Assembly: GCF_003334255.1 (NCBI RefSeq) | Contig: NZ_QOWU01000154.1 | Direction: 5' to 3' (one strand) | DNA from: Escherichia coli | GTDB lineage: Bacteria; Pseudomonadota; Gammaproteobacteria; Enterobacterales; Enterobacteriaceae | DNA length: 1,612 bases | Part shown: positions 1 to 734 of the stretch, one piece after another | Position numbering within the stretch: position 1 is the first letter of the stretch | Layout: every line of letters starts with the position of its first letter | Made by a program: the position numbers and the translations under genes | Notes under the pieces: generated by a model | Seen by the model: only the letters and a program-made list of their open reading frames with translations | What the model was told of the DNA's origin: nothing | The model's database searches: none

Positions 1-734
1 TCCGGCATTCGCTCACTACAGCTTATCCAACCATCCGGAGTTACCGGAGAGTTGCCCGATAGTGCATTCTGCTCCAGTGATGCTTTTACAAACCACGCTG
101 CCTGAACTATAACGCCATGAATCCAGCGCAAATCAGCATCGCGATCTTTCTTTTTCATCTTTTCGCCACTTAAGGCCTTGCTTATGTGGCTGCGTACCAG
201 GTCTTCATGTAATTCCTTCGCCTCCTCAATGGTGAAACCACCAGGCAGAAGAGCCGGAGTTACCGGAGAGCTGGTTGACGCTTCCGGGATTTCCCGAAAA
301 TTATTGGTTGACGAATTCTTGCTTTCCCGAAAGTTTCCGGACTGAAGCATGTCGGTGCGGCAGGCGTTCCATATTTCGGCAGCAATATCGCGCTCGCTAT
401 CGGTTAATTTGTACGTGGAAACATAGCCAGAGAGCATTTCTACGTTTTCCGGAGTTGCTTCTTCCGGCACTACCGGCGCTGGCGGGGCGGCAAATAGATA
501 TCCGCCAAAGTCAGGAAGCTCTCCAATGGCCTGTACGAACTTTTGTTTGCCTACGTCAACTCCTAATGGGTAATGAGCTATAATCTTTGCCACCGGCTCT
601 GCTTCCAGCGATACCAGTGCAATTCGTGCCAGTTCTTCCGCTTCTTCTGCTGGCAGTACAACGTTGCTACCCGGTCCGTATGTTTCGCGCCACTGCTTGA
701 TTGTCAGCAGTCGCCCTTTGGTAATAGTGATCAT
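1..734 (-). CDS. Hypothetical modular phage protein, 3' partial (C-terminus beyond window start); N-terminal domain, S/T/N-rich repeat linker, ~70-aa middle module, then onset of a DUF551-like domain
   Basis: Manual minus-strand translation from ATG (734..732) to position 3 gives 244 codons with no stop: MITITKGRLLTIKQWRETYGPGSNVVLPAEEAEELARIALVSLEAEPVAKIIAHYPLGVDVGKQKFVQAIGELPDFGGYLFAAPPAPVVPEEATPENVEMLSGYVSTYKLTDSERDIAAEIWNACRTDMLQSGNFRESQEFATNNFREIPEASTSSPVTPALLPGGFTIEEAKELHEDLVRSHISKALSGEKMKKKDRDADLRWIHGVIVQAAWFVKASLEQNALSGNSPVTPDGWISCSERMP... The ATG overlaps the upstream stop as ATGA (731-734). Upstream on the minus strand is AAGAAGGAAACGCGGC-ATG, a GGA-type Shine-Dalgarno with ~8 nt spacer, and an in-frame stop lies just upstream (753-755), so 734 is the first possible ATG. 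'GWISCSERMP' at the edge resembles the start of DUF551 domains (recalled from memory, not searched). Missing from the ORF track only because it is open-ended. Confidence 0.75.
   Translation of the reverse strand, partial: MITITKGRLLTIKQWRETYGPGSNVVLPAEEAEELARIALVSLEAEPVAKIIAHYPLGVDVGKQKFVQAIGELPDFGGYLFAAPPAPVVPEEATPENVEMLSGYVSTYKLTDSERDIAAEIWNACRTDMLQSGNFRESKNSSTNNFREIPEASTSSPVTPALLPGGFTIEEAKELHEDLVRSHISKALSGEKMKKKDRDADLRWIHGVIVQAAWFVKASLEQNALSGNSPVTPDGWISCSERMP
35..51. repeat. 17-bp perfect direct repeat, copy A (CCGGAGTTACCGGAGAG); partner at 254-270
   Basis: Exact 17/17 match read directly; copies are 219 bp apart (73 codons, in frame). On the minus strand this copy encodes N-S-P-V-T-P-D, immediately before 'GWISCSERMP'. 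Confidence 0.9.
254..270. repeat. 17-bp perfect direct repeat, copy B (CCGGAGTTACCGGAGAG); partner at 35-51
   Basis: Exact 17/17 match; on the minus strand encodes S-S-P-V-T-P-A at the end of the S/T-rich linker of gene 3. Confidence 0.9.
273..338. repeat. Imperfect 33-bp tandem duplication (2 copies, ~70% identity) encoding an 11-residue S/T/N-rich repeat
   Basis: 273-305 ggttgacgcttccgggatttcccgaaaattatt versus 306-338 ggttgacgaattcttgctttcccgaaagtttcc: 23/33 identical, including shared GGTTGACG and TTTCCCGAAA blocks. Minus-strand translation gives NFRESQEFAT-N-NFREIPEAST. Confidence 0.75.

Follow-up and report, generated by a model that had tools for sequence, protein, structure and literature searches.

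What is the repeat that sits in the middle of a prophage gene of the DUF551 family, and is it still changing in size? The question is raised by a stretch of 1612 nt from Escherichia coli (contig NZ_QOWU01000154.1), hereafter the window, in which two adjacent 33-nt units lie between coding modules of such a gene. An earlier note, made from the letters of the window, had described them as a recent duplication in an expanding, low-complexity linker. The analysis led us to a different reading, to which we assign a probability of roughly 0.7: the repeat is an old two-copy part of a conserved, probably disordered linker, which also marks a recombination joint of prophage accessory gene modules. The feature is an ordinary case of phage gene and protein mosaicism.

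A diverged in-frame tandem repeat

On the minus strand, the reading frame enters the repeat through ATG CTT CAG TCC GGA, passes through unit 1 (AACTTTCGGGAAAGCAAGAATTCGTCAACCAAT) and unit 2 (AATTTTCGGGAAATCCCGGAAGCGTCAACCAGC), and leaves it through TCT CCG GTA ACT CCG, which gives the successive peptides MLQSG, NFRESKNSSTN, NFREIPEASTS, and SPVTP (coordinates in Table 1). The two units matched at 23/33 nucleotides when 273-305 was set against 306-338, the value and the positions given in the earlier note, and at 24/33 in the best register (270-272). When all periods from 21 to 60 nt were scanned, no tandem signal in the window exceeded that at 33 nt (z = 6.1), a value reached by 0/200 mononucleotide shuffles (maximum z = 5.2). 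A repeat search returned the pair as family D3 (272-302 / 305-335, 77% identity, spacing 33). Both units share the 11-residue pattern x-F-R-E-x4-S-T-x. The segment is an in-frame, head-to-tail tandem duplication of 33 nt, or 11 codons, beyond chance. On translation, the unit 2 peptide, the 244-residue fragment, and the SPVTP junction were all as previously described; the unit 1 peptide had been mistranslated as NFRESQEFAT-N.

The possibility that two neighboring stretches of 33 nt resemble each other by coincidence was given a practically negligible probability. What speaks for it is that Tandem Repeats Finder, run at a minimum score of 30, did not call the repeat, the copies being too diverged; this silence in turn suggests an old duplication. 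Against coincidence stand the shuffled controls and the retention of the x-F-R-E-x4-S-T-x period in both units across hundreds of homologues.

Age and copy number of the units

The units were compared with those of five other loci carrying the two-unit linker. One of these, S1-CAM-02-A, has units identical to those of the window; the remaining four, retrieved through protein similarity, are genes of phages (P7 upf89.5, SEN22 EaA, Stx1_120412, and ev017). Unit 1 matched unit 1 of another locus at a mean of 29.3/33 positions (25-33/33 in the four phages), and unit 2 matched unit 2 at a mean of 30.8/33 (29-33/33 in the other phages), whereas unit 1 matched unit 2 at 24-25/33 positions inside one gene and at 23-27/33 across genes. 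Because corresponding units are closer across phages than neighbors are within a gene, the duplication is old and preceded the spread of the linker over lambdoid, P1-like, and P22-like phages. We also considered that the units might evolve in concert and rejected this, as the two units of one gene resemble each other no more than units taken from different genes do.

Copy number was uniform among close relatives. Exactly two units were present in 122/122 arrays from the 120 closest homologues, two of which hold the module and linker twice, and window positions 240-390 aligned without gaps in 60/60 of the E. coli genome matches listed. When IMG/VR was scanned with a DNA pattern of three units spaced 33 nt apart, 12 matches were returned, all of them unrelated tandem repeats. 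Among 150 representatives of 50%-identity clusters, which share N-terminal or middle modules with the window protein, 21 had two units, five had one, none had three or more, and the rest used other linkers, including MLQAGNSPVIPDGW, MLQSQGEGNPHVTPARLPGG, and MLQGAEPVSQTYKLP. One-unit forms of both kinds were found, with unit 2 alone (SGNFREIAETSTNSPVIP) or unit 1 alone (FRENKNSSTNYPVIP). The alignment of E. coli RM13745 with P7 upf89.5 shows a gap of exactly 33 nt, with the direct repeat CGTCAACCAA at its borders and near-identical flanks on both sides; the unit 1-only form appears to have originated by this 33-nt deletion. Two units are the standard state of the linker, and the size changes seen are losses to one unit only.

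If the units had arisen recently by slipped-strand duplication, in a low-complexity linker that expands and varies in copy number like a variable number tandem repeat, this would account for the tandem 33-nt period, for the one-unit relatives, and for the PEASTSS mini-duplication in one homologue (P0002). Repeats of that kind are characterized by high identity between copies and by polymorphism among close relatives that includes expansions, and the repeat of the window has neither trait: its units are 73% identical, each is closer to its counterpart in distant phages, and neither the 120 closest homologues nor the E. coli matches listed depart from two units. No related array of three or more units was found in the IMG/VR scan, the homologues, or the cluster representatives, and the changes observed were deletions. 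We therefore regard a recent expansion as very unlikely, and the words "recent" and "expanding" in the earlier description had to be dropped. Its expectation that copy number varies among related phages holds for the wider family, in which 0, 1, or 2 units occur, but not for the 120 closest homologues; the comparison across homologues that it had proposed, once run, showed variation between two units and sometimes one, and no gains.

The linker cassette as a joint between modules

The two units lie within a longer conserved cassette, which ends in SPVTP. By blastn, the cassette was 84-93% identical to P7 upf89.5, Stx1_120412, ev017, and SEN22 EaA (gene nucleotides 364/375-479/481), and the patch common to all four phage genes extended from the WNACR codons through the last codon of SPVTP, while neither flank could be aligned. 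Block edges at window 371 and at 254-256 were found again in E. coli genomes, 1137/5426 of which contained the block. When flank instances were collected from IMG/VR and phage records (200, of which 92 distinct), the two-unit linker had about 31 sequence clusters upstream of it and about 16 downstream, paired in 41 combinations. The downstream partners comprised several DUF551 variants, a SEVLSAILKVAKIRADFDDFDG module, a LPGGFTIEEAKELHEDL module, and Zn-ribbon-like modules (...STKCWCHTCRPV... and ...STKCPKCGGRG...). Crude as the flank clustering is, its qualitative outcome is plain: the cassette is a homology island between non-homologous flanks in many combinations and a shared joint of interchangeable modules.

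The SPVTP junction occurs a second time in the gene. Its two copies (254-273 and 35-54) are 19/20 identical, with a spacing of 219 nt, or 73 codons, and they bracket a helical middle module. This module is absent from the Stx1_120412 and SEN22 genes, whose single junction aligns to both window copies; it forms a stand-alone open reading frame (ORF) in Klebsiella phage e270.2, and in other proteins it follows many different linkers. Direct repeats around a module that some genes have and others lack are the pattern that would be expected from module insertion or deletion by recombination between the repeats.

The N-terminal region is itself mosaic, with alternative blocks exchanged at ARIALxSLEAEP and APPAPxVPEE (homologue alignment A1). 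In the same alignment, P0002 carries a second copy of the middle module in addition to its mini-duplication, and in P0022 and P0025 the whole N-terminal module is duplicated along with the two-unit linker. A breakpoint inside unit 1 was also seen in P1-like plasmids, in which MLQSGNFRES is followed by an unrelated module (DVITPDHHKQAEKSG...; L022 p98222-contig_6 439-1140; P0135, P0178).

Table 1 Features of the window, with positions counted from its first letter.
Feature	Position	Strand	Residues or content	Basis
Repeat unit 1	303..335	minus	NFRESKNSSTN (aa 134-144)	period scan, unit comparison
Repeat unit 2	270..302	minus	NFREIPEASTS (aa 145-155)	24/33 identical to unit 1
Conserved linker cassette, ~116 nt	254..371	minus	aa 122-160, WNACRTDMLQSG + two units + SPVTP	blastn
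Junction repeat copy A, CAGCTCTCCGGTAACTCCGG	254..273	minus	end of unit 2 + SPVTP	repeat family D4
Junction repeat copy B, CAACTCTCCGGTAACTCCGG	35..54	minus	GN-SPVTP just before DUF551	repeat family D4
Helical middle module	55..253	minus	aa 161-227, ALLPGGFTIEEAKELHEDL...EQNALSGN	bracketed by junction repeats; AlphaFold helices 169-188, 195-225
N-terminal modules	336..734	minus	aa 1-133, ending in helix ...DIAAEIWNACRTDMLQSG	alignment; AlphaFold helix 112-131
DUF551-family prophage gene	734..1 (ATG 734-732; runs off at position 1, 3' end cut)	minus	first 244 codons of 302-aa ORF	translation
DUF551 domain start	1..32	minus	WISCSERMP...; ~10 first residues inside the window, rest outside	Pfam match from aa 235
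ead/Ea22-like gene, end portion	1556..1248	minus		separate ORF upstream of DUF551 gene
171/182-aa ORF	1279..731 (171-aa form 1246..731)	minus		conserved phage ORF

Composition and predicted structure of the linker

Residues 132-166 are rich in S/T/N/P/G/Q (60%, versus 29% in the rest of the protein) and have a mean hydropathy of -0.78 (versus -0.27). The full-length AlphaFold model had a mean predicted local distance difference test (pLDDT) score of 40.6 and was poor outside DUF551; it placed coil at residues 132-168, between helices 112-131 and 169-188, and over residues 131-160 the block mean pLDDT was 35, 23, and 23, the lowest of the model being about 23. A second model, of residues 100-235, was built on an alignment of 34 trimmed homologues (mean pLDDT 50.2). 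It contained helices 112-132, 169-188, and 195-225, its flanking helices reached pLDDT 53-71, and its pLDDT fell below 50 exactly over residues 133-167. Since both models are of low overall confidence, the low values over the linker do little more than hint at disorder; together with the composition, they suggest that the repeat segment is probably a disordered, floppy tether between domains. To call it an S/T/N-rich interdomain linker was reasonable in view of the composition and of the coil between predicted helices. The same cannot be said of a low-complexity spacer, as the segment does not drift freely and ranks with the best conserved stretches of the family.

Conservation inside the cassette

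Conservation was assessed in 86 loci with the two-unit linker (80 retrieved by codon-degenerate peptide patterns and six from earlier searches), which represent 38 distinct DNA variants. Across these variants, F (TTT), R (CGG), E (GAA), S (TCG), S (TCA), and T (ACC) were invariant or nearly so in both units, and the intervening residues varied freely (N/S/K, K/S/P/L/A, N/G/D/I, A/S/P, and T/A). Counted by eye, the variant types numbered about 50 nonsynonymous versus about 16 synonymous, near the neutral 3:1, and synonymous diversity was low overall. As it was low throughout the cassette, no separate constraint at the DNA level can be claimed from this sample. The simplest reading of the conservation would be recent shared DNA ancestry, with relaxed selection at the variable positions.

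The same data bear on the proposal that the periodic DNA is a cis-acting element, either a protein-binding site placed every three helical turns or an RNA structure. The sequence TTTCGGGAAA does occur twice, 33 bp apart, with synonymous sites invariant in most variants. However, the low synonymous diversity extends over the whole cassette and not over these cores alone, and alleles with one unit or none are common. As minus-strand RNA, window 250-375 folded no better than shuffled sequence (z = -0.06), and Rfam, searched at E up to 1, gave two matches only, both to eukaryotic small nucleolar RNA families and far below the gathering scores. An RNA element in the cassette was rejected on these grounds, and the cis-acting proposal as a whole retains a very slim chance.

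A reading that is compatible with a recombination joint is that the units form a functional tandem peptide motif (F-R-E ... S-S-T-N), for example a short linear motif that a protease, a modifying enzyme, or some partner from host or phage recognizes; the cassette would then be kept for the action of the peptide and not for DNA recombination. The near-invariance of F, R, E, S, and T in both units over the 38 variants, amid freely varying neighbors, would fit such a motif, as would the maintenance of the cassette before very different C-terminal modules, including Zn-ribbon-like ones. However, the synonymous positions of the same codons (TTT, CGG, GAA, TCG, TCA, and ACC) are also nearly invariant, so the conservation may reflect recent shared DNA ancestry instead of selection on the peptide. 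Many family members, moreover, do without the units and use linkers such as MLQAGNSPVIPDGW, one-unit forms of both types persist, and the units correspond to no known motif or partner identified. We consider a peptide motif unlikely, though it deserves to be weighed.

A more distant group in IMG/VR carries the linker DFREI(S/P)NSSTN-NFRENAETSTK, which leads into Cys-rich, Zn-ribbon-like modules. In this group F-R-E is followed by I in unit 1 and by N in unit 2, so that the usual order of the two residues is inverted.

Proposed history of the joint

In the reading that we prefer, window 270-338 encodes two diverged 11-residue units within a conserved, hydrophilic linker of 35-40 residues. In a mosaic DUF551 accessory protein that temperate phages of enterobacteria carry, this linker would tether the helical N-terminal module to the module that follows. 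The duplication is old, the two-unit linker is the standard form, and occasional in-frame 33-nt deletions between short direct repeats within the units (AAYTTTCGGGAAA or CGTCAACCAA) yield the one-unit derivatives. The cassette of about 116 nt and the related SPVTP junction are homology islands between genes whose neighboring modules are unrelated, and homologous recombination at these two places may swap, insert, or delete modules in frame.

Several points weigh against this reading. Recombination at the cassette is deduced from block boundaries, for which shared ancestry with fast divergence of the flanks offers an alternative, and the flank combinations come from a crude clustering by 3-mer overlap. 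The 80 pattern-retrieved loci were chosen by their likeness to a two-unit query, so that the sample favors the two-unit form, and loci from the exact DNA pattern search are likewise biased toward it. As to disorder, the two AlphaFold models are of poor overall quality (mean pLDDT 40.6 and 50.2). Weak conservation would be expected of a disordered linker, and yet alignment A1 shows no variation at 17/23 positions between G133 and S155. The retention of F-R-E and S-(S)-T across the 38 DNA variants is unlike a pure spacer and points to some sequence-specific constraint.

A bolder version of the preferred reading would make the cassette and its SPVTP junction more than a passive tether. They could be a "universal joint" kept at the DNA level for in-frame swaps of effector modules among lambdoid, P22-like, and P1-like phages, or a tandem motif through which one shared partner, from host or phage, is brought to varied C-terminal domains (DUF551 variants, Zn-ribbon-like, and helical), or both. 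This version is speculative, and we consider it unlikely.

The DUF551 gene and its prophage setting

As the gene runs off the window, its full 302-residue ORF was taken from a 100%-identical locus in NZ_AP022815.1 (L001:5879-6787). In the complete ORF, DUF551 (PF04448) is the only Pfam domain, at residues 235-298 (E = 3.6e-20, full model length), and the gene matches phrog_60. The Ead_Ea22 signature (IPR025153) had no match in the 302-residue protein, for which the Pfam scan reports DUF551 alone. Public records name the gene "DUF551 domain-containing protein," "Ea22," or "phage protein"; the name "Ea22" in the record of phage PhiR5_1 is an annotation and not a test of family membership. A sequence search of solved structures returned nothing significant for the DUF551 protein.

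Three observations concern the gene as annotated and its alleles. In RefSeq, the intact 302-residue ORF is given as two "incomplete" DUF551 pseudogene pieces and the intact 171-residue ORF before it as "frameshifted" (L001:5879-6787 and L001:5367-5879); this splitting is probably an annotation artefact of the mosaic structure. In a common allele of 252 residues (P0019; L002:2379-3137), whose cluster numbers 401 sequences, the whole DUF551 core is missing, although WISCSERMPD and the C-terminal QEVNQ are retained. In full-length relatives, the core from WISCSERMP to WMPLPEPPQEV is hypervariable.

The window is part of an E. coli lambdoid prophage. It is 100% identical over its 1612 nt to part of several E. 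coli chromosomes (e.g., NZ_AP022815.1 1200340-1201951), and some part of it is present in 3095/5426 complete E. coli genomes. In JE86-ST05 (NZ_AP022815.1), the block lies between replication gene P and antiterminator Q. In S1-CAM-02-A (NZ_CP145707.1), the 1.6-kb block adjoins xis and int, a prophage neighborhood different from that of JE86-ST05.

All window genes are on the minus strand. The 171-residue ORF matches phrog_9263 and phrog_631 (E = 1e-121 and 1e-94); it had no match in Pfam and nothing significant in a sequence search of solved structures, and NCBIfam and PADLOC gave zero matches for any of the three window proteins. An ATGA overlap (window 731-734) joins this ORF to the DUF551 gene, and TGAtATG after AAGGAG (window 1244-1250) joins the Ea22-like gene to it. 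Since these gene ends and starts overlap or abut, the arrangement suggests translational coupling along a single operon.

Significance and comparison with known systems

The immediate consequence is small: the peptide of unit 1 is corrected, and the repeat is shown to be an old, stable feature and not an active or expanding one. A short in-frame cassette conserved in both DNA and peptide, which joins dozens of modules in DUF551, Ea22-like, and EaA proteins, is a mildly useful pattern in its own right. It offers natural domain boundaries for expressing or modeling these proteins, and it illustrates clearly how temperate phages exchange modules within a gene at linkers. There is also a small chance that the conserved F-R-E / S-T-N periodicity marks a functional motif.

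The ea22 genes of Stx phages have been described as mosaic, with DUF551 as a portable domain (PMC10834534). The patchwork of the window gene fits this description of the Ea22, DUF551, and EaA accessory proteins found in the exo-xis and nin regions of lambdoid and Stx phages; the window protein differs from the Ea22 family in lacking an Ead_Ea22 Pfam match. The words "linker" and "disordered" are absent from that structure paper, and a limited literature search found no prior description of the two-unit linker cassette.

Two phage proteins carry the same two-unit linker. P7 Upf89.5 carries NFRENKNSSTN-NFREIAETSTN, its cassette being 93% identical to the window gene in nucleotides, and EaA of the Salmonella phage SEN22 carries IFRENSISSTN-NFREIAETSTN (84%). 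They differ from the window gene in that the modules on one or both sides are unrelated to its own; P7 shares nucleotides 1-146 and 364-479 only. Compared with disordered S/T/N/P-rich interdomain linkers whose length varies through repeats, the linker of the window is similar in composition, predicted coil, low model confidence, and length variation among relatives (0, 1, or 2 of the 11-residue units). In sequence, linkers of that class usually change rapidly, whereas this one is among the best conserved segments of its family in both protein and DNA.

Conserved junction sequences at module borders belong to the classical picture of modular evolution in lambdoid phages, a picture reportedly set out by Susskind and Botstein, by Juhala et al. 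in 2000, and by Clark et al. in 2001. The junctions of the window resemble such boundary sequences in being short conserved islands of DNA with non-homologous flanks in many combinations, and here a direct repeat brackets an insertable module. However, the classical boundary sequences lie mostly at gene borders, whereas the junctions of the window lie inside a reading frame and encode a peptide linker, and they must therefore stay in frame and be tolerable as protein.

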